This document shows positions 816 through 62,409 of a stretch of 64,000 bases of DNA, in pieces. The notes beneath the pieces were generated by a model. The model was not told where the DNA came from. It worked only from the letters and a program-made list of their open reading frames with translations, and did not search any database. This stretch comes from Candidatus Wildermuthbacteria bacterium (GTDB lineage Bacteria; Patescibacteriota; Minisyncoccia; Minisyncoccales; UBA10102): positions 90,470 through 154,469 of the forward strand of contig JACPMK010000003.1 in the NCBI GenBank assembly GCA_016186115.1. Reading direction: 5' to 3'. A program made the translations under genes and the position numbers. Every line of letters starts with the position of its first letter. Position 1 is the stretch's first letter.

Positions 816-3251
816 ATGCAAAAGTACAATCCTCAAAAAATTGAGGCAAAGTGGAAACGGATTTGGAAGAAGGCCAAACAATGGAAGGTGGATTTGAAAA
901 GAGCAAAAAAGCCCTACTACAATTTGATGATGTTTCCCTATCCTTCGGCTGAAGGACTGCACGTAGGGAATGTGTATGCCTTTACCGGATCTGATATCTA
1001 TGGGCGATTTCGCCGCATGCAACAGAACGACGTGTTTGAGCCAATGGGGTTTGATTCTTTTGGAATTCATTCGGAAAACTACGCCATAAAAGTTGGGGTT
1101 CATCCCAAGATCCAAACCAACAAAAATATCCAGAATTTCCGAAAACAGCTCAAAGCGCTTGGCGCGCTTTTTGCTTGGGATCACGAAGTTATTACTTCGG
1201 AACCCGAATACTACAAATGGACCCAGTGGTTGTTTTTGCAATTGTATAAAGCCGGTTTAGCATATCGCGCAAAAGCTCCAGTTGACTGGTGCCCTTCCTG
1301 CAAAACTGTTTTGGCTGATGAGCAGGTAATACAGGGAAGATGCGAACGGTGTGACAGCGAAGTCGTACAAAAAGAATTGGAGCAGTGGTTTTTCCGAATT
1401 ACCAAGTATGCTGAAAAGCTCCTGAAAAACCTCGAAACCATAGATTGGTCCGAAAGAACAAAAATTGCCCAAAGGAATTGGATAGGACGATCTGAGGGTG
1501 CTCAGATCGAATTCAAAATTCAAAGTTCAAAACTCAAAATTGAGGTCTTTACTACGAGGCCAGATACTCTGTTCGGAGCTACATATCTCGTGCTTAGTCC
1601 CGAGCACTCGCAAATTCCAAACCTCAAATCACAAATTACAAATTGGAACGAAGTAGAAAATTATATCGCCCAAGCAAAAAAGAAAAGCGAATTAGAGCGC
1701 ACGGAGCTTACGAAAGAAAAAACAGGAGTTGAGCTCAAAGGGATAAAAGCGATAAATCCTGCGAACAACGAGGAAATTCCCGTGTGGATTGCTGACTACG
1801 TGTTGGCCTCTTATGGCACGGGCGCCATTATGGCCGTTCCCGCGCACGACCAGCGAGATTTAGAATTTGCAACAAAATACAATCTTCCCATCAAACAGGT
1901 AGTTTGCGGCAATTATCCAGAACCTGTATGCCCCATATTAGCGGAGGCGTATCTTGGGCCGGGCCATCTCGTGGGTTCTGATAAGTTTGATGGTATGGAG
2001 TTTGAAAAAGCGAAATGGGAAATTACCAAGTTTGTCGGAGGCAAAAAAACAATAAATTACCATCTTCGCGACTGGCTGATTTCGCGCCAGCGATACTGGG
2101 GACCACCCATACCTATTATATATTGTGATAAGTGTGGAACTGTACCGGTGCCAGAAAAAGATTTACCGGTGTTGCTTCCGAATGTAAAAGAGTTTCGCCC
2201 GACTGGTACCGGAAAATCGCCATTGGCTTCGGTTCCGAGTTTTGTGAATACAAAATGTCCACAGTGCAAGGGGCCGGCTGAACGGGAAACTGATGTTTCA
2301 GATACGTTTCTCGATTCTTCTTGGTATTTCTTTGGGTATCTTTTGAAGTTTGGAAATTGGAAATTAGGATTTGGGAATTCAGCATTTTCTCAACTGTTGA
2401 AAAAATGGTGTCCTGTGGATATGTATATTGGCGGGCAAGAGCATGCGGTTTTGCATTTACTCTACACGCGATTTATTACAATGGCCCTTAAGGACATGGG
2501 CTTTATTGATTTCAAGGAGCCGTTCAAAAAGTTCCGGGCGCATGGATTGCTTACAAAAGACGGCGCAAAGATGTCGAAGTCCAAAGGAAATGTGGTGAAT
2601 CCAGATGAATATTTTGCAAAATACGGAGCTGATACGGTACGAATGTATTTAATGTTTTTGGGGCCATTTAGCGAGGGAGGAGATTGGAGTGACAAGGGGA
2701 TTGTGGGGATTTATCGTTTTCTGAACAGGATCTGGAATTTTCAATTTCCAATTTCCAATTTTCAATCAAATTCTAATGTTCCAAATTCTAAACTTGAGAG
2801 TCTACGACACAAAACGATTAAGAAAGTTACGGAAGATCTTGAGAATCTGCGATACAACACCGCGATCGCAGCGTTGATGGAATACTTTAATGAAATTTCT
2901 AATTTTCAATTTATAATTTCTAAACAATACATTGAAACACTTCTTGTCTTGCTTGCGCCGTTTGCGCCCCATATTGCCGAAGAGCTCTGGAGCCAACTAC
3001 GCGCTAAGGGCAGCGTTCACAACCAACCTTGGCCGTCGTATAGCCCCAAGCTGATCAAAGAAGAAAAAATACGTCTTGTTCTGCAAGTGAATGGAAGGGT
3101 GCGCGATGTGATCGAAGTGCCAGCCCAGATTTCGGAAGGCGAGGCAAAAGAGCTTGCTCTTCGGCAAAAATCGATCCAGAAATGGATCGAAGGCAAACAA
3201 ATCCAGCGAGTAATTTTTATTCCTCAAAAGCTTCTCAATATCGTGGCGTAG
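816..3251 (+). CDS. leuS: Leucyl-tRNA synthetase
   Basis: 811-aa ORF with an N-terminal YNPQKIEAKW, the HIGH-type motif GLHVGNVY, the KMSKS motif GAKMSKSKGN, and the CP1 editing block TRPDTLFGATY...AVPAHDQRD. Confidence 0.97.
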   Translation: MQKYNPQKIEAKWKRIWKKAKQWKVDLKRAKKPYYNLMMFPYPSAEGLHVGNVYAFTGSDIYGRFRRMQQNDVFEPMGFDSFGIHSENYAIKVGVHPKIQTNKNIQNFRKQLKALGALFAWDHEVITSEPEYYKWTQWLFLQLYKAGLAYRAKAPVDWCPSCKTVLADEQVIQGRCERCDSEVVQKELEQWFFRITKYAEKLLKNLETIDWSERTKIAQRNWIGRSEGAQIEFKIQSSKLKIEVFTTRPDTLFGATYLVLSPEHSQIPNLKSQITNWNEVENYIAQAKKKSELERTELTKEKTGVELKGIKAINPANNEEIPVWIADYVLASYGTGAIMAVPAHDQRDLEFATKYNLPIKQVVCGNYPEPVCPILAEAYLGPGHLVGSDKFDGMEFEKAKWEITKFVGGKKTINYHLRDWLISRQRYWGPPIPIIYCDKCGTVPVPEKDLPVLLPNVKEFRPTGTGKSPLASVPSFVNTKCPQCKGPAERETDVSDTFLDSSWYFFGYLLKFGNWKLGFGNSAFSQLLKKWCPVDMYIGGQEHAVLHLLYTRFITMALKDMGFIDFKEPFKKFRAHGLLTKDGAKMSKSKGNVVNPDEYFAKYGADTVRMYLMFLGPFSEGGDWSDKGIVGIYRFLNRIWNFQFPISNFQSNSNVPNSKLESLRHKTIKKVTEDLENLRYNTAIAALMEYFNEISNFQFIISKQYIETLLVLLAPFAPHIAEELWSQLRAKGSVHNQPWPSYSPKLIKEEKIRLVLQVNGRVRDVIEVPAQISEGEAKELALRQKSIQKWIEGKQIQRVIFIPQKLLNIVA
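1511..1545 (+). repeat. 7-nt phased micro-array ATTCAAA|ATTCAAA|GTTCAAA|ACTCAAA|ATTGAGG inside leuS
   Basis: Read directly from the sequence. It encodes KIQSSKLKIE. Confidence 0.8.
1611..1645 (+). repeat. 7-nt phased micro-array CAAATTC|CAAACCT|CAAATCA|CAAATTA|CAAATTG inside leuS
   Basis: Read directly from the sequence. It encodes QIPNLKSQITNW. Confidence 0.8.
2343..2377 (+). repeat. 7-nt phased micro-array TTGAAGT|TTGGAAA|TTGGAAA|TTAGGAT|TTGGGAA inside leuS
   Basis: Read directly from the sequence. It encodes KFGNWKLGFGN. The unit is the reverse complement of the 2736-2770 unit. Confidence 0.8.
2736..2770 (+). repeat. 7-nt phased micro-array AATTTTC|AATTTCC|AATTTCC|AATTTTC|AATCAAA inside leuS
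   Basis: Read directly from the sequence. It encodes NFQFPISNFQSN. Confidence 0.8.
2894..2928 (+). repeat. 7-nt phased micro-array AATTTCT|AATTTTC|AATTTAT|AATTTCT|AAACAAT inside leuS
   Basis: Read directly from the sequence. It encodes ISNFQFIISKQ. Confidence 0.8.
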
Positions 3252-3301
3252 GGTTGTTTTTTCGCTTAAATTGTGGTAGAGTGAGGGCAGAAAAAGATTG
3301 C

Positions 3302-3330
3302 GCACGAACCCCGTTGAGCCGTGCTTTTTT
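3302..3330 (+). terminator. Weak candidate rho-independent terminator after leuS
   Basis: A GCACG(3302-3306)/CGTGC(3320-3324) stem with a 13-nt loop is followed by TTTTTT (3325-3330). The short stem makes this a low-confidence call. Confidence 0.35.
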
Positions 3331-3361
3331 GCTTAATCGCTCGAGTAAGTGATTTTTCTTT

Positions 3362-3420
3362 GCCCCGCCCCGTCATTCGGCTGGGGCGGGGCACATTTCG
3401 CCTCGCCCTTACGGGCTGGC
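3362..3420. other. Two GC-rich hairpins in the leuS-glmS spacer
   Basis: There is a perfect 10-bp stem, GCCCCGCCCC (3362-3371) with GGGGCGGGGC (3383-3392), and a second hairpin GCCtcGCCC-TTAC-GGGCtGGC (3400-3420). Neither has a flanking U-run on either strand. Confidence 0.6.
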
Positions 3421-3537
3421 TCAACGTGGGCACCTACGCGTCTGCAGAAAAACCACTTTTTCTCTCTCTGTCTATATACTAAATGCCCTGCCCGCAATGC
3501 TACGCATAGCGTTGTAGGCGGGTAAATACTAATTACC

Positions 3538-7396: not shown

Positions 7397-8122
7397 ATGA
7401 AGTTTCACACAAGTATTAGTAAAACAGAAAATGGGGTTCATGTGATCCGTGGCCATGATCTCATTGAGCTCATGGAAAAGCACTCATTTGTGGAGGTGAT
7501 TTTTTTGCTCTTGCGAGGCAGTTTGCCAGAAGAGCGTGAACGAGAATTGATGGAAACAATGTTGGTAGCTCCGGTAGAAAACGGACTGGAAGCGCCTTCT
7601 ATTTTTATTCCTCGCATCGTGGCTTCTACGGGAAATAATTTTCATACCGCATTGGCTGCAGGAGTATTGGCAATTGGCGAGCGGCACGGCGGCGCAGGAG
7701 AAGCAGCGGCGCAATTGTTTTCCTCAGGAAAAAGTGCAGTTGAAATTGTAGATGAATATATACGCAATAAAAAGATTCTTCCGGGTTTTGGCCACAAGAT
7801 TTATAAAGAAGAAGACCCGAGGGCAACTGCAATATATAAGAGAGCAAAAGAACTCGGATTCTCTTGTCGATATTTTGAACTTGCCTATGCCATAGAGCAG
7901 GAGTTTGCCAAGCAAAAGGGCAAAAAAATTCCTCTCAATATCGATGGCGCGTTGGCGGCAGGATTGCTTGAGCTTGGGTTTGACGCACGGCTCGGGAAAG
8001 CATTCTTTTTGATTTCACGGATCATTGGCATGTCCGCACATATCTTGGAGGAGCTTAATCAGAATAATCCCTATTATCGTCTTGAAGAGAGCGAAGTTAC
8101 TCCTGACGAAAATGCATCATGA
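7397..8122 (+). CDS. Short citrate-synthase-fold protein (citryl-CoA lyase-like)
   Basis: 241 aa that retains the citrate-synthase catalytic contexts ERHGGAGEAA, GFGHKIYKEEDPRA and LNIDGALAA. Its length matches the lyase or C-terminal ACL module, not a full citrate synthase. Confidence 0.7.
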   Translation: MKFHTSISKTENGVHVIRGHDLIELMEKHSFVEVIFLLLRGSLPEERERELMETMLVAPVENGLEAPSIFIPRIVASTGNNFHTALAAGVLAIGERHGGAGEAAAQLFSSGKSAVEIVDEYIRNKKILPGFGHKIYKEEDPRATAIYKRAKELGFSCRYFELAYAIEQEFAKQKGKKIPLNIDGALAAGLLELGFDARLGKAFFLISRIIGMSAHILEELNQNNPYYRLEESEVTPDENAS

Positions 8123-14149: not shown

Positions 14150-16252
14150 TTATACGGCAGGTTCGGGCTTTTGTAAACTTTCTGCTTTTGAGTTTTTGCA
14201 TGCGGGATTGGAGCATTTGATCTGCTTTCGCTTTGTTTCCACAAGCAAAGAGCCGCATTCGGTGCAGGTTTTGTTTATGGGTTTGTCCCACAAAGCAAAA
14301 TCACATTCTGGATAGCGATTGCATCCATAGAAAATTTTTCCCCGCTTGGTGCGTTTGGTAACAATTTCTCCCTTTTGACATTTTGGGCACGAGATGCCAA
14401 GCGAAGTATTTCCGCTGTTTGCAAGCGATTCTGTATATTTGCATCCGGGAAACTTTGTGCAGGCATAGAATTTGCCAAATCTTCCAAGGCGTATCACAAC
14501 CGGCGCGCCGCATTGCGGGCAGAGTTTGTCGGTTACTTCTTGCGCAATTTCTTTTTTCGAAATTTCTTTGTATTTTTGTTCAAGATTCTTGGAGAATGGC
14601 TCATAAAAATTTCGGATCACAGGCACCCATTCCTTTTCGCCCTCGGCAATTTCATCCAGCTCTCCTTCCATTTTTGCGGTAAAATTAATATCAACAATGT
14701 TTTTAAAATGTTGCACGAGAAGATCACTGACGACCTCTCCCATGTCGGTTGGACGAAAACGCTTTTGTTCGTCCTTTTCCACATAGTTGCGTTCCTGAAT
14801 GGTGGAAAGAGTCGGGGCGTAGGTTGAGGGGCGGCCAATGCCATATTTCTCTAACGCTTTTACCAGCGTAGCTTCGGTATAGCGCGGAGGGGGTTCGGTA
14901 AAGTGTTGTGTTGGGATAATTTTTTGCAGTTCAAGCGCCTCGTCTTTCTCCAATGGCGGAAGTTCGGTTTCGGTAAATCTCATGGGATAGACCTTGAGAA
15001 ATCCATCGAAGCGCAAGGTTTGTCCCGAGGATCTGAAGGTATAATTTTTTGCTGCAATATCAACATTGGTTGAATCAAAAATCGCTGGAGACATTTGGCT
15101 TGCGATAAATCGTTGCCAGATGAGATTATAGAGTTTGTATTGCTGCGGATTTATATTATTCTTGAGCGTTTCCGGAGTTTTGTCGGGGTATGCCGGGCGG
15201 ATTGCTTCGTGGGCTTCCTGCGCGCCGCGGGATTTGGTTTTGAACTGCCGCGAAAAGCCGGGCCAATAATTTTGTCCCAACGTATTGATAATGAATTGTT
15301 TTGCGAGAGAAAGGGAGAGTTTGGAAAGGTTGAAAGAATCGGTGCGGTGATAGGTGATAAGTCCGGTTTCATAAAGCTGTTGCGCCGTGGCCATGGTTTG
15401 TTTTGCGGAAAATCGCAAACGCTGCCATGCTTCTTGTTGCAAAGTTGAAGTGGTAAAAGGTGCAAGAGGATTGCGTTTGGTTTCTTTTTTCTCGATATTT
15501 GCTATTTGATACGTTGCTCCCTCGAGTTCCTTGAGGATTTGTTTTGCTTCATTCTCATTTTTTATTCCTAATTTTGGGATTGGTTTTTCATCTTTTGCAA
15601 CAAGCGTTGCGGTAAATTCGTATTGGTCATTTGAAAATTTTCGAAGCATAGCTTCGATGCTCCAATACTCTTCTGGCTCGAATCCGCGGATTTCTCTTTC
15701 CCGTTCCACCACGAGTCGCACCGCAACCGACTGCACTCTTCCGGCAGACAATCCGCGCGCAACTTTTCTCCAGAGAAATGGGGAGAGTTTGTACCCAACC
15801 AAACGGTCGAGTATTCTGCGCGCTTGCTGGGCATCAACAAGGCGGATATCAATGTCTCGCGGATTTTTCAATGCTTCTTCGATTGCCTGCTTTGTAATTT
15901 CATGGAAGACAATTCTTTGAATCGGTTTCGAGTTTCGTGCTTCGGATTTCGAATTTTCCAAGTCAAGGACTTGGGCAAGGTGCCATGAAATTGCTTCCCC
16001 TTCACGGTCTTCATCGGTTGCAAGGATGATTTCATTCGCATTTTTCACCTCATTTTTTAATGCGCTCACCGTTTTTCTTGCTTTGGTGGGAATAATATAT
16101 GCAGGAGCGAAATTGTGCTCAACATCAATGCCGAGCTTTGATTTGGGCAAATCGCGCACATGCCCAAAAGAGGACTCTATTTTGTAGTCCTTGCCAAGAA
16201 ATTGCTGAATTGTTTTTGCTTTGGTGGGGCTTTCAACAATAACGAGTTTCAT
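14150..16252 (-). CDS. topA: DNA topoisomerase I
   Basis: The ORF extends to 16273 and the likely start is MKLVIVESPTKAKTI at 16252. It has the Toprim motif TDEDREGEAISWH, the catalytic context ITYHRTDS, and three C-terminal Cys4 zinc ribbons. Confidence 0.96.
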   Translation of the reverse strand: MKLVIVESPTKAKTIQQFLGKDYKIESSFGHVRDLPKSKLGIDVEHNFAPAYIIPTKARKTVSALKNEVKNANEIILATDEDREGEAISWHLAQVLDLENSKSEARNSKPIQRIVFHEITKQAIEEALKNPRDIDIRLVDAQQARRILDRLVGYKLSPFLWRKVARGLSAGRVQSVAVRLVVEREREIRGFEPEEYWSIEAMLRKFSNDQYEFTATLVAKDEKPIPKLGIKNENEAKQILKELEGATYQIANIEKKETKRNPLAPFTTSTLQQEAWQRLRFSAKQTMATAQQLYETGLITYHRTDSFNLSKLSLSLAKQFIINTLGQNYWPGFSRQFKTKSRGAQEAHEAIRPAYPDKTPETLKNNINPQQYKLYNLIWQRFIASQMSPAIFDSTNVDIAAKNYTFRSSGQTLRFDGFLKVYPMRFTETELPPLEKDEALELQKIIPTQHFTEPPPRYTEATLVKALEKYGIGRPSTYAPTLSTIQERNYVEKDEQKRFRPTDMGEVVSDLLVQHFKNIVDINFTAKMEGELDEIAEGEKEWVPVIRNFYEPFSKNLEQKYKEISKKEIAQEVTDKLCPQCGAPVVIRLGRFGKFYACTKFPGCKYTESLANSGNTSLGISCPKCQKGEIVTKRTKRGKIFYGCNRYPECDFALWDKPINKTCTECGSLLVETKRKQIKCSNPACKNSKAESLQKPEPAV
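15923..15957 (-). repeat. 7-nt phased micro-array inside topA (plus strand CGGTTTC|GAGTTTC|GTGCTTC|GGATTTC|GAATTTT)
   Basis: Read directly from the sequence. The sense strand reads AAAATTC|GAAATCC|GAAGCAC|GAAACTC|GAAACCG and the array lies in the ENSKSEARNSKPI segment. Confidence 0.7.
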
Positions 16253-16347
16253 ATACGCTTTGTTCAATCTCATTCAATAACCCTCACAATATAGAATTTC
16301 TTTCGATGGATGTAAAGTATTTGTGGCAGAGTAAAGGGTATTTCCCT

Positions 16348-16831: not shown

Positions 16832-16867
16832 GCCGTCAGACCTTCTGGTCTGACGGCTTTAATTTTT
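16832..16867 (+). terminator. Rho-independent terminator (plus orientation) overlapping the mfd stop codon
   Basis: A perfect 11-bp stem, GCCGTCAGACC-TTCT-GGTCTGACGGC, is followed by TTTAATTTTT. Confidence 0.7.
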
Positions 16868-18842
16868 CCACTGCTTCAGAAAGCATCTGACAGTAAAGAT
16901 TCAAGCCGACGGCATTGACGCTGCCCGATTGTTCCCGTCCAAGAATATTTCCTGCGCCGCGGATTTCCAAGTCGCGCATCGCAATGCGATAGCCAGAACC
17001 TAATTCGCCAGCTTCTTTTAAGGCATCCAATCGCAGTTTCACCTTTTCGCCAAGTTTGCGGGCGCCATACAAGAAATAGGCATAGGCGGTTTTGGCTCCG
17101 CGCCCGATTCGCCCCCGGATTTGATATGCCTGTGCCAGTCCTAGTTTTGTCGCATCATCTGCAATAAGGGTATTTACATTTGGCAGATCAAGGCCATTTT
17201 CAATAATGGTTGTTGCCACAAGCATATCGAATTTCTTTTCTCTAAATTCGTCCACAATGCGAATGAGCGTTTTCTCTTTCATCCTGGCGTGAGCAATGCC
17301 GATTGTTGCACTGGGCACAATTTTTTCCAGATATTTTTTCACCTCTTCAATGGTGCCGATGCGATTGTGCAGATAATATATCTGCCCGCTTCTTTTTAGT
17401 TCTGTTTCAATCGCTTGCTTGATGGTTTTTTCTTTTCTTTGCGCCACAGCAATTTGTACCGGCATTCTTCCGGCAGGGGGCGTATAGATGAGCGAGATAT
17501 TTTTGAGAGAAGAAAGCGCCATGTACAAGGTGCGGGGGATGGGCGTTGCAGAGAGCGAAAGCACATCGAGCGATGCGCGCATTTCTCGCAGTTTTTCTTT
17601 TTGCTTCACGCCAAATCGTTGTTCGTCATCAATTACCAGCAACCCCAAGTTGCGGAATTTTACATCCGAAGAGAGCAATCGATGCGTGCCAATAACCATA
17701 TCGATTTGCCCGTTTTCGATCTGGGAAAGAATTTGTCGCTGTTCTTTTTTGGATTGGAGCCGTGAAAGCAGGGCTATGCGAAAAGGTAGATTTTTGAGCC
17801 GCGATTGAAAATTCTGAAAATGCTGATAGGCGAGAATGGTGGTGGGCGCGAGGAGAGCAGTTTGGTATCCGTTTTCCACGGCCATGACCATGGTCCGCAG
17901 CGCGATTTCAGTTTTCCCAAAGCCAACATCTCCGCACACGATGCGATCCATTGGCCGCGTACCGGATACGTCATGCTTAATGTCTTCAAGCGCTTTCGTT
18001 TGATCCGGCGTTTCCTGATAGGGGAATGTTGCTGTTACTTTTTCTCCGATTTCATTTGTTGCAAGATAGGGAGGCCGCATTGTAACCTCTCTTTTGGCAT
18101 AAAGTTCCAACAATTGTTTTGCCATTTTTTCCACTTCTTCCCATATTCTCTTTTTGGTCTTTTGCCAGAGCAAAGATCCCAGACGGGAAATGTGCGGCTC
18201 GGCAAAGCCAACATAGCGGGAAAGTTTTCTTTCCAGCCCTACTGGTACGAAGAGCTTGTCGCCAGCCGCGTACTCAAGTTCGTAGTATGTAGTATTTGGT
18301 ATCTGGTATTCAGTATGGAGGGATGCTGCGATGCCGGCAAATCGCGCAACGCCATGATCGAGGTGCACGACGTAGTCCCCGGGCTTCAGTCCTTTGAGAT
18401 CAGAAAAAATTCGCTGTGATTTGAGCCGCTTTTTGAGAATTTCTTTTATTTTTTGTTCTTCTCCTTCGGTATAGGATTTTCCTGCTATAGCATGAATATA
18501 TTCTATGGTGTTTCCCTTGAATTCAATTTGGATCGGATGGCTCGTATTGATGGGGAAGATTTCTACGATTCCCCCTCGATGAGCGAATTCTCCTAAATCT
18601 TGCACCTGAAAAACCTTTTCATAACCCAATTCATCGATTCTGCGAAGTAATTGAGTGAGGGGATATGTTTGACCGACTTCAAGAAAAATAACGTTGTCTT
18701 GAAAAAATGGTTGGGTTTTTCGCGCGGCGAGAATTTTTTGCAAATTCTCTTCAAACCAAACATTCCCCTTTTCCAAAAAGTAGGGGGTGATAGCGACGAT
18801 CAATAAATTTTGTACGGTTTTATCGGGATAAGTATATTCCAT
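16836..18842 (-). CDS. mfd: Transcription-repair coupling factor, short form
   Basis: The track ORF starts at a TTG (18848) and the likely ATG is at 18842. It has the CarD/TRCF motif GDYVVHLDHGVARFAGI, helicase Walker A CGDVGFGKTE, DDEQRFG, and the translocation motif AMRDLEIRGAGNILGREQSG. Confidence 0.9.
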   Translation of the reverse strand: MEYTYPDKTVQNLLIVAITPYFLEKGNVWFEENLQKILAARKTQPFFQDNVIFLEVGQTYPLTQLLRRIDELGYEKVFQVQDLGEFAHRGGIVEIFPINTSHPIQIEFKGNTIEYIHAIAGKSYTEGEEQKIKEILKKRLKSQRIFSDLKGLKPGDYVVHLDHGVARFAGIAASLHTEYQIPNTTYYELEYAAGDKLFVPVGLERKLSRYVGFAEPHISRLGSLLWQKTKKRIWEEVEKMAKQLLELYAKREVTMRPPYLATNEIGEKVTATFPYQETPDQTKALEDIKHDVSGTRPMDRIVCGDVGFGKTEIALRTMVMAVENGYQTALLAPTTILAYQHFQNFQSRLKNLPFRIALLSRLQSKKEQRQILSQIENGQIDMVIGTHRLLSSDVKFRNLGLLVIDDEQRFGVKQKEKLREMRASLDVLSLSATPIPRTLYMALSSLKNISLIYTPPAGRMPVQIAVAQRKEKTIKQAIETELKRSGQIYYLHNRIGTIEEVKKYLEKIVPSATIGIAHARMKEKTLIRIVDEFREKKFDMLVATTIIENGLDLPNVNTLIADDATKLGLAQAYQIRGRIGRGAKTAYAYFLYGARKLGEKVKLRLDALKEAGELGSGYRIAMRDLEIRGAGNILGREQSGSVNAVGLNLYCQMLSEAVEKLKPSDQKV
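18283..18317 (-). repeat. 7-nt phased micro-array inside mfd (plus strand TAGTATG|TAGTATT|TGGTATC|TGGTATT|CAGTATG; sense unit NATACNN)
   Basis: Read directly from the sequence. It encodes EYQIPNTTYYEL. Confidence 0.8.
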
Positions 18843-18880
18843 CCACAATCCATATATAAAACAATCTTTCGAATTTTCAA

Positions 18881-18971: not shown

Positions 18972-19008
18972 AGGATATGAAGGAAGTCAAACTTCCTTCA
19001 TATCCTTA
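18972..19008. other. Perfect 17-bp hairpin abutting/overlapping the pth stop codon
   Basis: AAGGATATGAAGGAAGT-CAA-ACTTCCTTCATATCCTT, read directly from the sequence. Confidence 0.7.
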
Positions 19009-19581
19009 TTTCCTTATTAAACTCATTGCTTGGTCGAGGCCTTGGTCGATGATTGTTTGCAGCATTGCGGGAATACTATCTATTGTTTTGCGTATGGCTT
19101 GCAATTCTTGCGGGGTAAATTTGCGGAGCACGAAATTTTCAACGTCCTCCGGTTTTCCCGCAAGCGGCTGAATGCCAATTCTGATTCTTATAAAATCTTT
19201 TGTCCCGAGCTGCTCAATGATGGACTCCACGCCCTTGTGGCCGGCAGATCCGCTGGCAAAGGAAATTTTGAGTTGGCCAAGGGGCAGATCGATGTCGTCG
19301 TGGACAACGACTAGGTATTTAGTATTTAGTATTTTGTATTTAGCATAAAGCAATTTCGCGGCGAGGCCGGAGTTGTTCATGAGGGTCTGGGGCTTGGCGC
19401 AAAGAACGTCGGCCCCATCGATCCGTCCTTCGGAGATGAGAGATTCCGATTTTTTGTGAAGTTTACATTCGGGAAATTCGAATTTTGCCGCCAGCGCATC
19501 CAGCGCCATAAATCCCGCATTGTGACGGGTATGTTCATATTGCTTTCCCGGGTTGCCAAGACCAATGATGAGGTATTTCAT
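19006..19581 (-). CDS. pth: Peptidyl-tRNA hydrolase
   Basis: 191 aa with MKYLIIGLGNPG..YEHTRHNAGF and VVVHDDIDLPLG. Confidence 0.95.
   Translation of the reverse strand: MKYLIIGLGNPGKQYEHTRHNAGFMALDALAAKFEFPECKLHKKSESLISEGRIDGADVLCAKPQTLMNNSGLAAKLLYAKYKILNTKYLVVVHDDIDLPLGQLKISFASGSAGHKGVESIIEQLGTKDFIRIRIGIQPLAGKPEDVENFVLRKFTPQELQAIRKTIDSIPAMLQTIIDQGLDQAMSLIRK
19313..19347 (-). repeat. 7-nt phased micro-array inside pth (plus strand AGGTATT|TAGTATT|TAGTATT|TTGTATT|TAGCATA; sense unit AATACNA)
   Basis: Read directly from the sequence. It encodes AKYKILNTKYLV. Confidence 0.8.
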
Positions 19582-28357: not shown

Positions 28358-29551
28358 ATGGCTCGGACACTTTTATTTCCTCAGGGATTTTTTTGGGGTA
28401 CTGCAACTTCTGCTCATCAAGTCGAGGGGAATAATATTTATTCAGATTGGTGGAAGGCAGAACAGGAAGGCAAGGTGCCCCATAAATCGCAAAGAGCATG
28501 CGATTCATACAATCGCTACGAAGAAGATTTTGATTTGGCAAAAGCAATGCACAACAATGCGTATCGTTTTTCTATTGAGTGGGCGCGCATTGAGCCCCAA
28601 GAGGGCAAGTTTCAAGAAGAAGAAATCGAGCATTATCGCAGGGTGATCCGTGCCGCAAAAGAGCGGGGGCTGGAACCATTCGTAACATTGCACCATTATA
28701 CAGTTCCACAATGGTTTGCAGAAAAAGGTGGATGGACTCATAAAAAAGCTCCAGAGTATTTCGAGCGATATGTGCAATTTGTTGTAGAGCGGCTTGGAAA
28801 TGATGCGCGCTATTGGGTCACAATCAATGAACCCCTTATTCTGCTTGTGAAGGGGTATGGATCAGGAAGTTTCCCGCCATTTAAACGAAATAATTTCTTA
28901 GGGATGTTGCAAGCTACTTTTACAATGATAAAAGCCCATAAAAGGGCCTATAAAGTTATTCATGATCGAAATCCCGAAGCAAAAGTAGGCGTTGCGCATG
29001 CGATTAACTATTTAGAATCATCTGGGGGGATATTTCATGTTTTACAGATTCCAGTTGTTTTTGTACTGCGGTATGTTAAAGATCAATGGTTTTTGGATCA
29101 AATTAAAAACTCACAGGATTTTATTGGGGTAAACCACTATAGGCGTATAAAATTTTCATTCCGTAGAGGATCTTTTACAGAAGGAGATATTCTAAGCGAT
29201 TTTGGGTGGGAAGTTTATCCTCGTGGTATGTACCATGTGGTAAAATCCTTGCAAAGGTTTAAGCTACCCATTTTTATTACGGAAAATGGTATTGCGAATG
29301 CAAAGGATGATCATCGCTCAGCTTTTATAGTCGAACATTTGCAAGAGTTGCATAAAGCAATTGAAGAGGGGGCTGATGTGAGGGGATATTTTCATTGGTC
29401 GTTGCTCGATAACTTTGAATGGGCAGAGGGATTTCATATGAAATTTGGATTGGTCGAGGTTGATTTTGAAACATTAGAGAGGCGGCCTCGCCCCAGCGCA
29501 AATACATATGCCGAAATCTGCAGAACCAGTTCATTGGAAATTGATAGTTGA
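28358..29551 (+). CDS. Glycoside hydrolase family 1 beta-glucosidase
   Basis: 397 aa with FFWGTATSAHQVEG, the acid/base TINEP, and the nucleophile FITENG. Confidence 0.9.
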   Translation: MARTLLFPQGFFWGTATSAHQVEGNNIYSDWWKAEQEGKVPHKSQRACDSYNRYEEDFDLAKAMHNNAYRFSIEWARIEPQEGKFQEEEIEHYRRVIRAAKERGLEPFVTLHHYTVPQWFAEKGGWTHKKAPEYFERYVQFVVERLGNDARYWVTINEPLILLVKGYGSGSFPPFKRNNFLGMLQATFTMIKAHKRAYKVIHDRNPEAKVGVAHAINYLESSGGIFHVLQIPVVFVLRYVKDQWFLDQIKNSQDFIGVNHYRRIKFSFRRGSFTEGDILSDFGWEVYPRGMYHVVKSLQRFKLPIFITENGIANAKDDHRSAFIVEHLQELHKAIEEGADVRGYFHWSLLDNFEWAEGFHMKFGLVEVDFETLERRPRPSANTYAEICRTSSLEIDS

Positions 29552-29569
29552 TAATTGAAAATTTGTATC

Positions 29570-31509: not shown

Positions 31510-32517
31510 ATGAAGCGTATTTTCTTAGCTATTATCTTGCTACTGGTTGCGGCTGTTTTGTTTTTCTTTACGGGCGTTCCCAAGCCCGCAGAAAAAATTC
31601 TATGGGGCATAACTTTTTCTCATTCTTATGCAAGAGACCTTGGATTGGATTGGCGCCAGACATATCTTGCTTTGCTCGATGATCTTGGCGTAAGGAATAT
31701 CCGTATTCCTCTCTATTGGAATGAGTTGGAGCGGGAGGAGGGAGCATTCGATTTTTCTTTATGGGATTGGCAATTGCAAGAATTAGAAAAAAGACAGGGC
31801 AAGGCAATCATAGCAATTGGCGTAAAACTTCCTCGCTGGCCCGAATGCCATATACCAGAGTGGGCAAGGGGTTTATCGCAAGAAAAGCGCCAAGAAGCAG
31901 TTCTTTCGATGCTTCAGGAGGTTGTTGAGCATTACAAAAATTGGAATGTTATTGAGAAATGGCAGGTGGAAAACGAATATACCGCGTCTTCGGGCATTTG
32001 CCCGAAATTAGACGTATCCTTGCTTCCAAAAGAAGTACATTTGGTGCGTACGCTGGATCAGCGACAAATTATTCTACAAGATGAGGGCATTGCATCTTCA
32101 TGGTTTTTTGCTGGGGAATATGCTGATATTATTGGAATTTCGATGTATCGTTTTCGAGCAAGCGAGACATTGGGATTGATTCATTATCCCTTTCCTCCAG
32201 CCATTTTCCAGAGAAAAGCGCAGCTTTTTCATATGAAATATCCCAACAAAAAAGTGATTATCACAGAACTGCAAGCAGAGCCATGGCCAGTAACTGGAAC
32301 AGTGGAGGGAGATTATAGAACAATGGACCCGCAGCGTTTTCAGCAGCATATTGCATACGCGAAACGCACTGGTTTTGATGAATTTTATCTCTGGGGCGCC
32401 GAATGGTGGTACTGGTTGAAAATTCATGGCGAGAATGCTATTTGGAATGAGGCAAAAGAATTGTATAATGAAATATATTTATTGAACTTTTTGCATGCGA
32501 AAACGCATCTATCTTGA
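31510..32517 (+). CDS. Membrane-anchored clan GH-A TIM-barrel glycosidase-like protein, paralogue 2 (tandem duplicate)
   Basis: It is collinear with paralogue 1: LGLDWRQTYLALLDDLGVRNIRIPLYWNELEREEGAFDFSLWDWQLQELEKR against LGLNWRETYLALVDDMGVRRFRIPIYWDELEKEKGKFDFSAWDWQLQELEKR. It also has WQVENEY and IITELQAEPW. Confidence 0.6.
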   Translation: MKRIFLAIILLLVAAVLFFFTGVPKPAEKILWGITFSHSYARDLGLDWRQTYLALLDDLGVRNIRIPLYWNELEREEGAFDFSLWDWQLQELEKRQGKAIIAIGVKLPRWPECHIPEWARGLSQEKRQEAVLSMLQEVVEHYKNWNVIEKWQVENEYTASSGICPKLDVSLLPKEVHLVRTLDQRQIILQDEGIASSWFFAGEYADIIGISMYRFRASETLGLIHYPFPPAIFQRKAQLFHMKYPNKKVIITELQAEPWPVTGTVEGDYRTMDPQRFQQHIAYAKRTGFDEFYLWGAEWWYWLKIHGENAIWNEAKELYNEIYLLNFLHAKTHLS

Positions 32518-33667
32518 TTATTCGGCTTCGACACCGGTTGATCCTAAGGTTTTGCGAGCAATGCTCCCGTATTTCAAAAAGGAATTTGGCAATCCCTCTT
32601 CGCGTCATGGCTATGGCCAGCGCGCCAGCGCAGCAATTGAACACGCAAGAACTCAAGTAGCCAACTTTCTGGGCTGCGCTGCCCAAGAAATTATTTTTAC
32701 AGGCGGCGCAACAGAATCAAACAATCTTGCTATCCAAGGCATTGTCGGACAAAAAAGAGCAACAAAGCCGCATGTTATTACTTCTGCTATTGAACATGAA
32801 TCTGTGCTGGAAGTATGCCGGACCCTTGAAAAAGAAGGAGCGGCAGAAGTGAGCTATCTTACTCCCGATGCAGAAGGAATAATAGAAGTGAAAGAGGTGG
32901 AGCGCGCAATCCGTCCCAACACCACGCTCGTTTCTATCGGCTATGCCAACAGCGTAATCGGTACCATTCAGCCCATTGCAGAAATTGGGAAATTGCTTTC
33001 TCAATACAATATACAAAATACTACATACAAGATACTATTTCATACCGATGCGGTGCAGGCAGCCCTTTATCTTTCTTGCGACGTGAAAAAGTTGGGAGTT
33101 GATTTGCTCACGTTGAGCGCGCATAAGCTGTATGGTCCCAAAGGTGTTGGCGCTCTTTTCGTCAAAACAGGGGTTGCGCTTCGGCCTTTGCTTTTTGGCG
33201 GAGGGCAGGAGAATGATCAAAGAGCAGGTACTCAAAATGTTCCGGGAATTGTCGGGTTGGGAACAGCGATCCAAGAACTTCAGAATCCCCGTATGGCCCT
33301 GACCGCAATCAAAATCCGGCAATTGAGGGACCGGCTTACCAAAACCATTCTTAAAAAAATTTCTGGAGCAGCTCTTTCGGGTTCTTCTCAAAAGCGTCTT
33401 CCATCGAATGTGCATATAAGATTTGAGGGATGCCAAGCGCGAGATATCGCATTTCTTTTTGATCAAAAGGGTATCGCCGTTTCTACGGGTTCTGCGTGCT
33501 CTGAAAGAAGTCAGGAGCCCTGCCATGTGCTTTTGGCAATGGGTTTTTCCGCAGGCGAAGCGCTTTCTGGGGTGCGCATCACTCTTGGAAGATATACCAC
33601 AGCAGAAGAAATTGATGCTGTGGCAGAGAAATTGCCCGCAATTATTACGCAATTAAGAAAATCATAA
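32495..33667 (+). CDS. iscS: Cysteine desulfurase (IscS/NifS class)
   Basis: 390 aa with IYLDYSASTP, the PLP lysine in SAHKLYGPKG, and the catalytic Cys in STGSACS. Confidence 0.9.
   Translation: MRKRIYLDYSASTPVDPKVLRAMLPYFKKEFGNPSSRHGYGQRASAAIEHARTQVANFLGCAAQEIIFTGGATESNNLAIQGIVGQKRATKPHVITSAIEHESVLEVCRTLEKEGAAEVSYLTPDAEGIIEVKEVERAIRPNTTLVSIGYANSVIGTIQPIAEIGKLLSQYNIQNTTYKILFHTDAVQAALYLSCDVKKLGVDLLTLSAHKLYGPKGVGALFVKTGVALRPLLFGGGQENDQRAGTQNVPGIVGLGTAIQELQNPRMALTAIKIRQLRDRLTKTILKKISGAALSGSSQKRLPSNVHIRFEGCQARDIAFLFDQKGIAVSTGSACSERSQEPCHVLLAMGFSAGEALSGVRITLGRYTTAEEIDAVAEKLPAIITQLRKS
33004..33038 (+). repeat. 7-nt phased micro-array ATACAAT|ATACAAA|ATACTAC|ATACAAG|ATACTAT inside the cysteine desulfurase gene
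   Basis: Read directly from the sequence. It encodes QYNIQNTTYKIL and uses the same unit family as the mfd and pth arrays. Confidence 0.8.
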
Positions 33668-58211: not shown

Positions 58212-58787
58212 ATGGATCAAGGAAATTTCGAGCACGAACTCAAAAAAGAAAATCTGCGAATCGAGGGGGAAAGGATATATTTGCGTCCAGTTGGAGAATT
58301 GGATGCGACTGTAGAATATGTTGGTTGGTTGAATGATCCTGAAGTGAATCAATTTCTTGAAAGCAGATTCACCGTCCACACGAAAGCAAATTTGCAAGAA
58401 TACATCCGAAAACAGTCGGCAGATCCGAACACATTATTTTTGGCTATTGTTCTCAAGGAAACCGGAGAACACATTGGCAATATAAAACTAGGGCCTATGG
58501 ATTGGCATCATGGCATCGGGGATATTGGCATCATGATTGGAGACAAGAAATCTTGGGGCAAAGGATTTGCTACGGAAGCAATCCAGCTCCTTGAGCACTA
58601 TGCATTTGAAGTTCTGCATTTGCATAAGTTGACTGCGAGCGCATATGAGCCAAATAGAGGATCGACAAAGGCCTTTTTAAAGGCGGGTTTCTTTGAGGAA
58701 GGAAAAAGAAGTGAGCATGCGTTGTTTGAGGGAAGCTATATTAATGTGGTGCTTATGGGAAAAATAAACAAAAATGGAAAAAATTGA
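58212..58787 (+). CDS. GNAT acetyltransferase (RimJ/RimL-like)
   Basis: 191 aa with YLRPVGELDA..WLNDPEV and GKGFATEAIQLLEHYAF. Confidence 0.75.
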   Translation: MDQGNFEHELKKENLRIEGERIYLRPVGELDATVEYVGWLNDPEVNQFLESRFTVHTKANLQEYIRKQSADPNTLFLAIVLKETGEHIGNIKLGPMDWHHGIGDIGIMIGDKKSWGKGFATEAIQLLEHYAFEVLHLHKLTASAYEPNRGSTKAFLKAGFFEEGKRSEHALFEGSYINVVLMGKINKNGKN

Positions 58788-59700
58788 ACAAAAATCAAAA
58801 TTAGTGTTAGGAACTGTGCAGCTTGGATTGGCGTATGGAGTAAATAATCAACACGGGAAACCCGCAGAGGAAGAAGCGTTTTCTATTCTCGATACTGCTT
58901 TTGCCGGGGAAATCAATACGTTTGATACGGCTTCTGCCTATGGAGATGCTGAAGAGGTTTTGGGAAGATGGCTCAAGGCAAGATCTCTTGCGGAAAAAGT
59001 GAGAATTATTAGCAAGCTGAAACCTCATATTCTCAACGAATATCCCGATGGGACAAAGGGTTCTGATGTGATAAGAAGCGAAATTGAAAAATCGCTTGAT
59101 CGGCTTGGGATAGGACAGCTAGACGGATATCTATTCCATTCCCCGCATTATATTTATTTGAGCCATTTGGTTGCGGGAATGCGCAAGGCAAAGGAGGAAG
59201 GGTTAACTCGAAACATTGGCGTATCTATTTATGATGAAGACGAGGCATTGCAGGCAGCAGAGCTTGTAGTGGATTACATTCAGATCCCTTATAATGTATT
59301 TGATCAACGACTCGATAAAACCAATTTTTTCGAAATTGCCAAGCGCAATAACGTGACTGTTTTTGCGCGTAGTCCATTTCTGCAGGGCCTTTTGCTTATG
59401 GACGTAAATCGCATTCCTTCGCATCTTGGCCATGCGCGGCAATTTGTATCCGAGTTTGCAGCCGTCAGCAATAAACTCGGAGTATCCCGTGCCGCTCTTT
59501 CTTTGCTCTTTTCTTATAATCATTCCCATCTTGACCACATTGTTTTTGGGGTTGATACAGCTGACCAGCTGAAAGAAGATCTCGCTATTATTTCCAATCC
59601 TCCTGCTATTGCAAGAGAAGCCGTTTCGGACCTTAAGGAGCGATTTCAGAATATCAACAGAAGCATTGTTCTCCCCAGCTTATGGGCAAAAGTGAAATAA
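58774..59700 (+). CDS. Aldo/keto reductase
   Basis: 308 aa with LGTVQLGLAYG, FDTASAYGDAE and IGVSIYD. Confidence 0.8.
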   Translation: MEKIEQKSKLVLGTVQLGLAYGVNNQHGKPAEEEAFSILDTAFAGEINTFDTASAYGDAEEVLGRWLKARSLAEKVRIISKLKPHILNEYPDGTKGSDVIRSEIEKSLDRLGIGQLDGYLFHSPHYIYLSHLVAGMRKAKEEGLTRNIGVSIYDEDEALQAAELVVDYIQIPYNVFDQRLDKTNFFEIAKRNNVTVFARSPFLQGLLLMDVNRIPSHLGHARQFVSEFAAVSNKLGVSRAALSLLFSYNHSHLDHIVFGVDTADQLKEDLAIISNPPAIAREAVSDLKERFQNINRSIVLPSLWAKVK

Positions 59701-60221: not shown

Positions 60222-60935
60222 ATGACAGCGAGTATTATTATTCCCGTATACAATGCAGAGCATACTCTTCAGGCGGCGCTCGAAAGCGCTTTACGCCAAA
60301 AGTTTCCCGGAACTGAATTTGAAGTGATTGTAGTAAATGATGGTTCTACCGATCATACGGCAGCGATTTTAGAATCTTATAAGCAAGAAATCCGAATTTT
60401 TACCCAGAAGAATAGTGGCGCACTCAAAGCGTCCAATGCCGGATTCCGTGCGGCTCAAGGCAAGTATGTAATAAAACTTGATGCTGATGATAGATTTGAA
60501 CCCCCTCTGCTACAGGAAATGACTGCTGCGAAGGAGCGGCATCCAGATGTTACATTTGTATACTGCGATTACTACGAGAAGAATGTAGCCACTGGCGAGG
60601 TCAAGGTTGTCTCGGCCGAAAATATATTTTCTACTGTTGGGGGAGGAATATTATTCTGCAGAGATGCATTTGCGAGAGAAGGTTTTTTTAGGGAAGATAT
60701 AAAGTTTGCAGAGTATGATTTACTGTTGCGAACGAAAGATAAATGGAAGGGGTGTTATGTCCCAAAACCACTTTTCTGGTATAACCGAAGAATCGGCAGC
60801 TTAACGAGTAGTGCGCAATGGCTCAAAGAAGCTTTTCGGGAATTATATCAGATCCATCCGGATAAACATGCAGAGATTAAGCAAATTCGAGGTTATGAAA
60901 TTACACGCACCAACAACGATTTATTCTCTTCTTGA
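60222..60935 (+). CDS. Family 2 glycosyltransferase
   Basis: 237 aa with SIIIPVYNAE, VIVVNDGSTD and KLDADD. Confidence 0.85.
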   Translation: MTASIIIPVYNAEHTLQAALESALRQKFPGTEFEVIVVNDGSTDHTAAILESYKQEIRIFTQKNSGALKASNAGFRAAQGKYVIKLDADDRFEPPLLQEMTAAKERHPDVTFVYCDYYEKNVATGEVKVVSAENIFSTVGGGILFCRDAFAREGFFREDIKFAEYDLLLRTKDKWKGCYVPKPLFWYNRRIGSLTSSAQWLKEAFRELYQIHPDKHAEIKQIRGYEITRTNNDLFSS

Positions 60936-62409
60936 GAATCAGGCCAAACAAAGGCCTCATCACCTTGCACTTATCGGAGAAAGAGCGTATACATATCGTG
61001 AATTTTTGAACTCTGTTTTGAGTTTTGTATCGGTGCTGCGTTCGAAATATCATGTGAAACCCAAGCAGAGAGTCGGCATTTACCTGCCAAATATCCCGGA
61101 GCACGCAATTGCCCTTTTTGCATTAAACAGAATTGGCGCAATTGCCGTGGTATTAAATATCCGTTTAGACGAGAGCAATCTCCGATTCATTATAGAAGAT
61201 GCGGGAATTTCTTTATTGATTACGCAAAAAGATTCCCAGAATTTTTTTAAGAAGGTATTCCCAGCCGTGCAAACGATAGCCAGAGAAGACGAAATACAGC
61301 CCTCATCAGCGCAAAGTTTTTCTACGATTCTTAAACAGGAATATCAACGACAGATCCCGACAGGCAAAGATGATGTAGCGCTTTTGATGTACACCTCCGG
61401 CACTACAGGCACGCCGAAAGGTGCCATGATGACCAATGCGAATTTGTTATTTAATTGCGCTTCTTCTAAACGTGGGTTTGGTTTAACAAAAAACGATATT
61501 CATTTGATCGTCGTGCCATTGTTTCACGTCACCGGGCTTAACAGTCAGCTTCTCGCTTCCATAGCAATGGGAAGTACGGCTATTCTTTTAAAAAAATACG
61601 ATACCGCCCAAGTAATGCGTTTGCTCAAGAAATATAACGTTACGATATTTATTGCTGTGCCTGCCGTGTTTAATTTATTGATTGCTAAATACAGACGGAT
61701 CCTGACACAACTGGAAGCGCTTCAGAAGATTGGATATGCTGGAGCGCCAATGCCGGTGCGTACGATTTTGACATTCAAAAAATATCTTCCTCGTATTCAA
61801 TGCTATAATTTTTATGGGCTTACCGAGACCTCTTCTATTACCACCGTACTGCCGGATCGCTATGCACTTAAAACTCCGGATTCTGTGGGTATCCCGGCAA
61901 AAGGAGTACAGATAAAGATTGTGGATGAACATGGCAAGGAGGTGGCGATAGGAGAACAAGGAGAGCTATGGATTAAAGGCGGAAATATTGTGAAGGGCTA
62001 TTGGAATAACGTACAAAAGACAAAAGAAACAATAACGAATGGCTGGCTTCACTCGGGAGATATTGCTCGTATCGACCAAAAAAGAAGAGTATTTTTGATG
62101 GGGCGAAAGAAAGAGGTTATAAATCGTGGAGGAGAAAAAATATATCCCATTACTTTGGAAAATAAATTATGTAATCATCCGAAGATTGTAGAGGCTGCGG
62201 TTGTAGGTGTTCCTGACAAAATTTTTGGCGAGGCAGTGAGAGTATACATCGTGAAAAAAGCGAGTGCTCATTTTTCCGAAGAAGAGTTTTTTGATTACTG
62301 TCGAAGCGTTTGTTCGGAGTACGAAATTCCTCGCGATGTCATCTTTATTCCAGAACTTCCTCGAAACGCAAATGGCAAAGTGCAGAAAGATATTTTGCGT
62401 ACTTTATGA
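60895..62409 (+). CDS. AMP-dependent acyl-CoA/acyl-carrier ligase (ANL superfamily)
   Basis: The ORF begins at 60811 and the start is ambiguous (ATG at 60868 or 60895). It has the AMP-binding motif MYTSGTTGTPKG, YGLTETS, and the C-terminal NGKVQK. Confidence 0.85.
   Translation: MKLHAPTTIYSLLENQAKQRPHHLALIGERAYTYREFLNSVLSFVSVLRSKYHVKPKQRVGIYLPNIPEHAIALFALNRIGAIAVVLNIRLDESNLRFIIEDAGISLLITQKDSQNFFKKVFPAVQTIAREDEIQPSSAQSFSTILKQEYQRQIPTGKDDVALLMYTSGTTGTPKGAMMTNANLLFNCASSKRGFGLTKNDIHLIVVPLFHVTGLNSQLLASIAMGSTAILLKKYDTAQVMRLLKKYNVTIFIAVPAVFNLLIAKYRRILTQLEALQKIGYAGAPMPVRTILTFKKYLPRIQCYNFYGLTETSSITTVLPDRYALKTPDSVGIPAKGVQIKIVDEHGKEVAIGEQGELWIKGGNIVKGYWNNVQKTKETITNGWLHSGDIARIDQKRRVFLMGRKKEVINRGGEKIYPITLENKLCNHPKIVEAAVVGVPDKIFGEAVRVYIVKKASAHFSEEEFFDYCRSVCSEYEIPRDVIFIPELPRNANGKVQKDILRTL

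Follow-up and report, generated by a model that had tools for sequence, protein, structure and literature searches.

Heptanucleotide arrays translated in frame at permissive sites of leuS and other genes in candidate phyla radiation bacteria

Tandem heptanucleotides of Calothrix, Nostoc and Anabaena, the short tandemly repeated repetitive (STRR) sequences, were reportedly described by Mazel and co-workers in 1990. STRR sequences are built from a few fixed units (such as CCCCAGT) and form long intergenic arrays in heterocystous cyanobacteria. Rickettsia palindromic elements (RPE), said to have been reported by Ogata and co-workers in 2000, are inserted in frame in protein-coding genes. Heptanucleotides are also the most abundant class of long simple sequence repeats (LSSR) of many bacteria, with polymerase slippage as the rationale, according to Mrazek (2007) as relayed in PMC4679880 and PMC4692102. 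Seven nucleotides may match a polymerase contact length, and published accounts depict heptamer repeats inside open reading frames (ORFs) as uncommon and peripheral (PMC4679880; PMC4692102). The subject of the present analysis is a stretch of 64,000 nucleotides (hereafter the window) from a genome of Candidatus Wildermuthbacteria (contig JACPMK010000003.1, positions 90,470 to 154,469), in which the gene leuS, encoding leucyl-tRNA synthetase (LeuRS), carries five short arrays of tandem 7-nt units that are translated as part of the enzyme. These arrays belong to the known, though little-studied, class of over-represented bacterial heptanucleotide repeats, and their setting is new: they stand in frame, in essential genes, at recurrent permissive sites and across lineages of the candidate phyla radiation (CPR). 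A preliminary description made from the window alone held that no mechanism had been described for such a pattern, which is too strong a statement, as both the heptanucleotide excess and the slippage explanation are published (Mrazek 2007, as relayed in the two papers above). Of the papers searched, none ties CPR/Patescibacteria to heptamer or simple repeats.

The host belongs to the CPR/Patescibacteria. Its LeuRS is 100% identical to a protein (P0001) of an NCBI Candidatus Wildermuthbacteria metagenome-assembled genome, the next relatives being at 76%, and the closest solved homologue is that of T. thermophilus (1H3N). The gene and its arrays are the following.

816..3251, + strand: leuS, leucine--tRNA ligase, 811 amino acids (aa), intact by ORF and translation, host to all five arrays
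1511..1545, + strand: array 1, unit ATTCAAA repeated 4-5 times, encoding FKIQSSKLKIE
1611..1645, + strand: array 2, unit CAAAnnn / CAAATTA, encoding QIPNLKSQITN in the editing domain
2343..2377, + strand: array 3, unit TTGGAAA, encoding LKFGNWKLGFG
2736..2770, + strand: array 4, unit AATTTCC / AATTTTC, encoding NFQFPISNFQS
2894..2928, + strand: array 5, unit AATTTCT, encoding ISNFQFIISKQ

The five 35-nt strings quoted in the preliminary description are exact in position and in every letter, and they do lie in frame within an intact gene: the ORF is uninterrupted from 816 to 3251 and its translation reproduces the quoted peptides. Each array consists of 4-5 head-to-tail 7-nt units with a lag-7 identity of 63-80%, and the GC content of the arrays is 14-29%, against 44% in the window. 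All leuS arrays have an AAATT core, and the arrays in mfd and pth (see below) both use AAATACT. Tandem Repeats Finder reports period 7 in leuS at 1510-1541, 1625-1644, 2350-2365 and 2736-2766, corresponding to four of the five arrays, and returns 44 rows for the whole window, 11 with period 7 and three with period 14. Arrays 3 (2343-2380) and 4 (2735-2765) are mutual reverse complements; together they rank first among the inverted repeats of leuS, pairing over 31 nt at 81% complementarity, or over 23 nt at 91%, across a 354-nt spacer. In the relative L083 the complementary pair is formed by sites 1 and 3 instead.

A lag scan of the window, collecting stretches with at least 16 of 21 matches at every lag from 1 to 24, identified 10 period-7 arrays in 64 kb, compared with 0.02 after dinucleotide-preserving shuffling and 0.06 after shuffling codons within genes; the other periods are at background, except 14 (twice 7). 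The arrays thus exceed the shuffled controls, a comparison proposed in the preliminary description, by about 150-500-fold. Chance, low-complexity AT-rich sequence or an assembly artefact, as the shortness and AT-richness of the arrays might suggest, can be regarded as refuted: the shuffles leave 0.02-0.06 arrays against 10 observed, period 7 alone is affected, the ORF is intact, and arrays occur at the same sites in independent NCBI, JGI and ENA assemblies. The most stringent control kept the proteins fixed and redrew synonymous codons from the window's own codon usage. This leaves 0.65±0.77 arrays against nine observed in the genes of the window and, for leuS, 0.44 against five, with a maximum of three in 1000 redraws, while the five leuS arrays hold 106 lag-7 matches against 74±6 for their own peptides recoded. 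Because the arrays far exceed these fixed-protein redraws, the periodicity belongs to the DNA and is not a by-product of the peptides, as had been claimed from the sequence. It is real, specific to 7, and goes beyond what the peptides impose. The global lag-7 autocorrelation excess (z=3.2) drops to 1.5 after masking of 12 arrays, and the signal therefore sits in discrete arrays; a diffuse genome-wide period-7 signal is ruled out. At lag 21 (7 codons) a z of about 3 over codon shuffles persists after array masking, which is not the case at lags 18, 24 and 27. Zero period-7 arrays were found in 50 kb around leuS of E. coli K-12.

The same control bears on the proposal that the peptides are selected, for example as amphipathic hairpin or loop heptapeptides (F-K-I-Q-N-S-K), and that the period in the DNA reflects codon bias in an AT-rich genome. 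Some period-7 signal does arise from the peptides alone, as seen in the 0.65 arrays remaining on synonymous recoding compared to 0.06 on codon shuffling. However, the observed arrays are about 14-fold above this peptide-only expectation, and a constraint on triplet codons cannot require a 7-nt period. Selection on the peptides is accordingly largely refuted and is considered very improbable; some evidence in its favour comes from two of the sites, as described in the following.

In an alignment of the window LeuRS with 21 relatives at 67-76% identity, mean column identity is 0.55 in the arrays and 0.82 in all other columns (p=2e-15). When the protein is divided into 12-aa windows, the six with the lowest conservation coincide with array sites, array 5 being the least conserved of all, which bears out the suggestion, made in the preliminary description, that the arrays occupy poorly conserved loops. 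Arrays 1 and 2 were likewise correctly said to equal the homologous loop in length, and this is also true of array 5. As to whether the arrays replace or extend existing loops, arrays 1, 2 and 5 are length-neutral replacements, whereas arrays 3 and 4 extend the protein in comparison with most relatives (array 3 is an insertion of 6 aa relative to most of them, array 4 one of 2-4 aa relative to those without the array). Placement in the structure relied on homology to 1H3N and on an AlphaFold (AF2) model with a mean predicted local distance difference test score (pLDDT) of 69.5. In this model array 1 forms an ordered beta-hairpin entering the CP1 editing domain (strands 224-235 and 241-246, pLDDT 81-88), and array 2 the ends of helices in the same domain. 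Array 3 is a low-confidence loop before the VDxYIGGxEHA block (pLDDT <50 over residues 508-531). Arrays 4 and 5 are placed in loops of the anticodon-binding domain, following helix 626-641 and between helices 680-695 and 703-713, respectively. The ordered hairpin at site 1, with a conserved succession of hydrophobic-x-Ile, turn and hydrophobic-x-Ile, speaks for selection on the peptide at that site. Coiled-coil heptads were considered and rejected, as each array encodes 1.4-1.7 heptapeptides and the model assigns a beta-hairpin to site 1 and helix ends or loops to sites 2, 4 and 5, with site 3 modelled at low confidence. Programmed ribosomal frameshift sites were also rejected, since one uninterrupted frame yields a LeuRS of full length that can be aligned with its homologues from end to end.

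The leuS DNA of four close relatives and 80 species-level genomes was compared by codon alignment; L081, L083 and L084 had been chosen partly for heptamer-like peptides, and the genome scan ranked loci by similarity to the window LeuRS. Orthologues at 50-76% identity have heptamer arrays at the same sites, composed of different units. At site 1 the number of codons is equal in most genomes, and the unit differs by lineage as follows.

ATTCAAA: the window and L084, as well as L080 and L020, loci of the Levybacteria type
ATACAAG: L082
AATTTCC: L083
AATCAAC: L081
ATACGnn: L007
TTTAGGG: L027

Compared to the window, L082 shows the identical T>A change in all four units of site 1, which points to concerted evolution. 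The site 1 DNA of L002, L003 and L066 is without 7-nt periodicity. Altogether 45 arrays are present in 20 of 73 LeuS genes, and they accumulate at hot spots that in window residues correspond to 230-245 (15 arrays with more than eight different units), 265-280 (six), an insertion at 439 (five), 509-526 (eight), 638-661 (four) and 691-706 (three). The site of array 2 carries arrays in six LeuS genes. Nucleotide identity to the close relatives is 0.49-0.60 at array sites and 0.70-0.72 in the rest of leuS. Array 4 is common to the window and the relative P0008/L081 (RIWNFQFSISDF), and at the site of array 3 L081 and L083 carry other heptamer insertions.

These comparisons also address the possibility, raised in the preliminary description, that close relatives encode the same loop peptides by non-periodic DNA. 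For the most part the relatives encode different peptides at the same site through differently phased heptamers, which argues against selection of the peptides, as does intergenic DNA that is also filled with heptamer arrays. Array 2 departs from this, as its closest relatives retain the peptide LKSQITNW with a lag-7 identity of 0.37-0.49, against 0.69 in the window. Retention of LKSQITNW with less periodic DNA indicates partial conservation of this peptide for its own sake, to which the codon choices of the window add the periodicity.

Recurrence of the pattern in topA, mfd, pth and the gene of a class-V aminotransferase (cysteine desulfurase-like), reported in the preliminary description, was confirmed, and 11 of the 12 arrays of the window are genic. 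Outside leuS they include the following.

15924..15956: weaker array, unit nnTTTCG (15/21 matches), in topA (14150..16273, - strand; gene identified by Pfam)
18277..18311: array nnnGTAT on the + strand, nnATACn in the sense direction, in mfd (16836..18848, - strand), at the CarD/TRCF-RID hairpin loop
19309..19352: array TAGTATT on the + strand, in pth (19006..19581, - strand)
29533..29563: array AATTGAT, at the junction between the 3' end of a GH1 glycosidase gene and the ORF that follows
33003..33035, + strand: array AATACAA, in the class-V aminotransferase / cysteine desulfurase-like gene (32495..33667)
62013..62040, + strand: array ACAAAAG, in an AMP-binding enzyme gene (60811..62409)

The excess extends well beyond this genome. 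The LeuS loci, encompassing 650 kb of AT-rich and mostly CPR DNA, contain 109 period-7 arrays, compared to 14, 13 and 7 arrays for periods 6, 8 and 9. A metagenome scan with the window Mfd provided 80 relative loci (694 kb) with 83 period-7 arrays, against 23, 10 and 21 for the same other periods. Among the Mfd orthologues (n=81), 22 of 23 arrays are located at the single CarD/TRCF-RID hairpin loop and use many different units. Both Pth and TopA have three hot sites, and the one at aa 76-94 of Pth holds 13 arrays among 70 orthologues. A phenomenon specific to leuS is ruled out, since pth is as dense in arrays and mfd and topA have hot sites of their own. Inside ORFs lie 75 (69%) of the 109 arrays of the LeuS loci, and array density in these loci is 3.7 per 10 kb in non-coding and 1.3 in coding DNA, a 2.8-fold difference. 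The genes leuS and pth reach 4.9 and 5.2 arrays per 10 kb, about seven times the density of neighbouring genes (7.5-fold for leuS, an enrichment that may be somewhat inflated because relatives were picked partly by heptamer-like peptides and loci were ranked by LeuRS similarity). The units are very diverse and track genome composition, being AT-rich in CPR and GC-rich in Gemmatimonadota, with no common motif. Arrays of GC-rich heptamers occur in some GC-rich Gemmatimonadota loci and in the cyanobacterial locus L025. In being genome-dispersed tandem heptanucleotides of unknown function, and in occurring in a cyanobacterial locus, the arrays resemble the STRR sequences, but they differ in their diverse AT-rich units, their shortness (4-5 units), their in-frame translation and their CPR host.

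Translation leaves a mark on the arrays. Among 45 coding arrays, the consensus unit contains a stop triplet in 11 when taken on the sense strand and in 27 on the antisense strand, the expected share being 57-60%. Because successive units of a heptamer array fall into all three phases, a unit that bears a stop cannot persist on the sense strand. Array 5 is a case in point: a perfect (AATTTCT)n would read ISNF followed by a stop, the array has AATTTTC as its second unit, and its three TAA triplets all stand out of frame. A translational filter is therefore visible. The sense strand of coding arrays has 52% A and 6% G, compared to 35% and 21% in genes, which the stop filter can explain together with the need for hydrophilic residues in loops. 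In these respects the arrays approach the TAACTGA repeats of Beggiatoaceae, cyanobacteria and Bacteroidetes (MacGregor 2015, PMC4679880), which are short heptamer direct repeats in 2-6 copies and appear in ORFs only in the stop-free orientation, translating to a repeated heptapeptide. That system, however, has one unit, is mostly situated just upstream of start codons (PMC4679880), and its copies in ORFs lie in peripheral parts of proteins or belong to hypothetical proteins, while the arrays described here have many units and occupy interior loops of conserved enzymes.

Our favoured explanation, to which we give an even chance of being correct, is that the arrays are short heptanucleotide repeats made by misalignment or conversion in a 7-nt register and then filtered by the constraints on the protein. 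A DNA-level process in this register would generate and homogenise short heptamers genome-wide. Transient misalignment of strands in replication or repair might shift the register by one unit, and copying or correction followed by realignment would then convert adjacent units to each other with the net length unchanged; alternatively, repair of slipped structures might duplicate one unit and delete another. In coding DNA such arrays would survive only where the protein takes almost any hydrophilic sequence of the right length without an in-frame stop. As the gain or loss of one unit is a frameshift in an essential gene, homogenisation must be length-neutral. The period-7 specificity, the periodicity at the level of DNA, the recurrence at permissive sites, the turnover of units at constant length and the stop filter, all observed directly, fit this scheme, and so do the denser arrays in less constrained DNA (non-coding over coding). 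The molecular step itself (misalignment and conversion), why the number should be 7 and why CPR genomes are so strongly affected are matters of inference.

Like the bacterial heptanucleotide LSSR of Mrazek, Guo and Shah (2007), insofar as that work is relayed in later papers, the arrays consist of head-to-tail 7-nt units, use many different units per genome, and show a period-7-specific excess for which slippage has been proposed as the origin. As portrayed there, LSSR are mainly intergenic, and repeats in ORFs favour multiples of three. In contrast, and despite the higher density in non-coding DNA, 75 of the 109 arrays counted above are in ORFs, and they occupy the interior of essential housekeeping genes, at recurrent sites, with constant loop length and only 4-5 units. 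Strain-level variation in unit number, the signature of slippage, was not encountered in the near-identical orthologue pairs compared. Slippage by three units (21 nt), which would keep the frame and had been put forward in the preliminary description, thus receives no support: there is neither a clear ladder of 7-aa steps nor unit-number polymorphism among near-identical strains. At the Mfd, Pth and TopA hot sites no convincing 7-aa ladder of loop lengths was seen, and the LeuRS proteins P0002, P0003 and P0004 are of equal length. Phase-variation (contingency) repeats were rejected as well, the arrays being imperfect, short and interior to essential cytoplasmic enzymes, with an intact ORF and no copy-number variants. 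A local spreading of unit types is also ruled out: the mean unit distance is 2.18 for arrays separated by 60-3000 nt and 2.14 for those more than 3 kb apart in the same locus, and the value of 2.46 between loci indicates a genome-level preference only.

Several results weigh against misalignment and conversion as the explanation. Length-neutral conversion is a postulate, with ordinary gain and loss of units ruled out as a route by the frameshift it would cause, and about 20 near-identical pairs of orthologues (>=99% nucleotide identity) contain no unit-number variants or indels at the arrays. Arrays are almost all of 4-5 units, also between genes, where free slippage would produce a longer tail (the 28-nt detection window bounds the four-unit peak from below, and the claim is restricted to arrays rarely exceeding five units). 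The scheme has no account of why 7 is preferred over 5, 8 or 10, and it leaves the strong differences in array density from gene to gene without explanation. A lack of constraint alone does not predict the roughly 7-fold density in leuS and pth. Moreover, some large ORFs that are presumably under weak constraint, namely a 1152-aa ORF (40609-44067; no Pfam match) and those of a Wzy_C protein and a peptidoglycan-binding protein, have no arrays; the first of these is presumably less constrained than LeuRS, so that its freedom from arrays is unexplained by pure lack of constraint.

Part of this pattern would be expected if the arrays were selected nucleic-acid elements, that is 4-5 units phased at 7 nt in mRNA or single-stranded DNA (ssDNA) that act as an OB-fold/cold-shock-type binding platform or as a structural or kinetic signal, and for which there is room only in loops whose protein sequence can vary freely. 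Such a function is considered improbable here. It would account for synonymous sites tuned to period 7, for the presence of arrays at identical sites over deep CPR divergence, at which saturation of synonymous sites would be expected, and for the roughly 7-fold density of leuS and pth over neighbouring genes. The arrays often come in inverted pairs able to form hairpins, and CspB has been reported to bind with one protein on each heptamer (PMC4679880). The restriction of array length to 4-5 units recalls the GGGNATC repeats described by Rehm et al. (2015, PMC4692102) in Xanthomonas and Nostoc, which share period 7 and a preference for about four units, although the present arrays differ in a G-poor sense strand (6% G) and in their position inside ORFs. 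G-quadruplex heptamer repeats, defined by at least four tracts of three or more G, were rejected, no G-tract being present on either strand in any of the five leuS arrays. Within the unit, the variable positions are slightly more clustered than random decay would make them (0.77 against a null of 0.70). This gives weak support to a build of four conserved core nucleotides and three variable ones, but the statistic is confounded by array edges, where partial units can produce the same effect. Against a nucleic-acid function stand the lack of any shared unit or motif among orthologues at a site, with units that follow base composition, and the many orthologues without an array at any given site. 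The least conserved location is what a neutral process predicts, and the A-rich, G-poor sense strand is explicable by the filters for stop codons and hydrophilicity. In a broader form of this functional interpretation, which we regard as unlikely, CPR bacteria and some other phyla would possess an active heptamer-register mechanism or a selective requirement that repeatedly rewrites permissive loops of essential genes, and intergenic hairpins, into functional elements of 4-5 units phased at 7 nt. These might serve as platforms for an OB-fold protein that binds single strands or pace transcription or translation at domain boundaries, and the odd peptides would be a tolerated by-product of a nucleic-acid code superimposed on the genes.

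Palindromic sequences were encountered in several of the loci compared. In L080 (Levybacteria) at least five copies of an intergenic hairpin element of about 110 nt (3855-3971, 4778-4883, 7772-7882, 8546-8651 and 12774-12857) have arms composed of AATTnnn / nnnAATT heptamer arrays and resemble repetitive extragenic palindromic (REP) sequences or terminators. LeuS hot sites of other lineages hold long in-frame insertions, at site 1 in L074, L059 and L067 and at window aa 439 in L005, L010, L027 and L080. The site 1 insertion of L074 is palindromic (TCATTGCGAG...CTCGCGATGA), and inverted pairs of heptamer arrays are found in L010 (GAAGTAA... then ACTTCGA...) and L067 (ACGCGGA then CCGCGTT). Orthologues at 93-99.5% nucleotide identity differ by in-frame GC-rich palindromic insertions of 6-54 nt (for example GAGACTTCGTCTC...CTCCACTTCGTGGAG, with TTCG loops), as seen in L148 vs L163 (Mfd, near window aa 264), L125 vs L134 (about aa 184), L137 (about aa 539) and L086 (about aa 148). 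Such insertions, a polymorphism between strains within an essential gene, are a different thing from the heptamer arrays.

An origin of the arrays as remnants of small hairpin-forming, possibly mobile elements with heptamer arms, inserted in frame and later trimmed or decayed in the manner of RPE, may be considered in this light. The intergenic copies with AATTnnn arms in L080 are in line with it, and so are inverted array pairs that occur as insertions (Mfd of L096, L097, L118 and L144; LeuS site 439 of L010 and site 1 of L067), near-identical strains distinguished by in-frame palindromic insertions, and array 3, which is both an insertion and the reverse complement of array 4. The arrays share with RPE a DNA-driven pattern tolerated in frame in surface segments, and orthologues do carry in-frame hairpin insertions at hot sites. 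However, RPE consist of scattered copies of a single element, about 100-150 bp long, which add residues, whereas arrays 1, 2 and 5 replace loops with zero change in length. The arrays of the window have no common flanks or longer consensus, almost none of them is intergenic, the units of close relatives differ at the same site by parallel point changes, and within a locus the similarity between arrays is no greater for neighbours than for distant pairs. We therefore consider this origin distinctly unlikely. An RPE-like mobile element in the strict sense is rejected, no element consensus extending beyond the unit and no length change accompanying arrays 1, 2 and 5; array 3 (+6 aa) alone is compatible with one.

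Other features of the loci were noted in passing. The intergenic region between leuS and glmS (3252-3537, 285 nt) contains GC-rich hairpins, e.g. GCCCCGCCCC...GGGGCGGGGC at about 3361-3391. An Rfam scan of the window gave one tRNA only, with no family, the glmS ribozyme included, at gathering score in 3252-3537. A 24-nt tandem repeat at 45452-45498 (two copies, 82% identity) belongs to a 563-aa protein that has a peptidoglycan-binding domain; in contrast to the heptamers it is a coding repeat of the ordinary in-frame kind. At 58755-58795 an A-rich tandem repeat with periods of 10 and 20 spans the junction of the ORFs 58212..58787 and 58774..59700. In L082, from the closest relative, a 222-aa reverse-transcriptase-domain (RVT_1) gene (1260-1928) is situated just upstream of leuS.

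If the arrays are indeed produced by misalignment or conversion in a 7-nt register and filtered by the protein, a nucleotide-level force would set the most variable loops of essential enzymes across a large and poorly understood bacterial radiation. Odd peptides of CPR proteins such as NFQFPISNFQ, KIQNSKFKI and DTKYKIQ would then be signatures of DNA and not functional protein motifs, and such low-complexity 'insertions' could mislead alignment, phylogeny and structure prediction. The hot sites would in turn map where LeuRS, Mfd, Pth and TopA accept arbitrary sequence. Finally, as the coding arrays would record the turnover of units at constant length, they would offer a testable handle on the old and unexplained excess of 7-nt repeats in bacteria.

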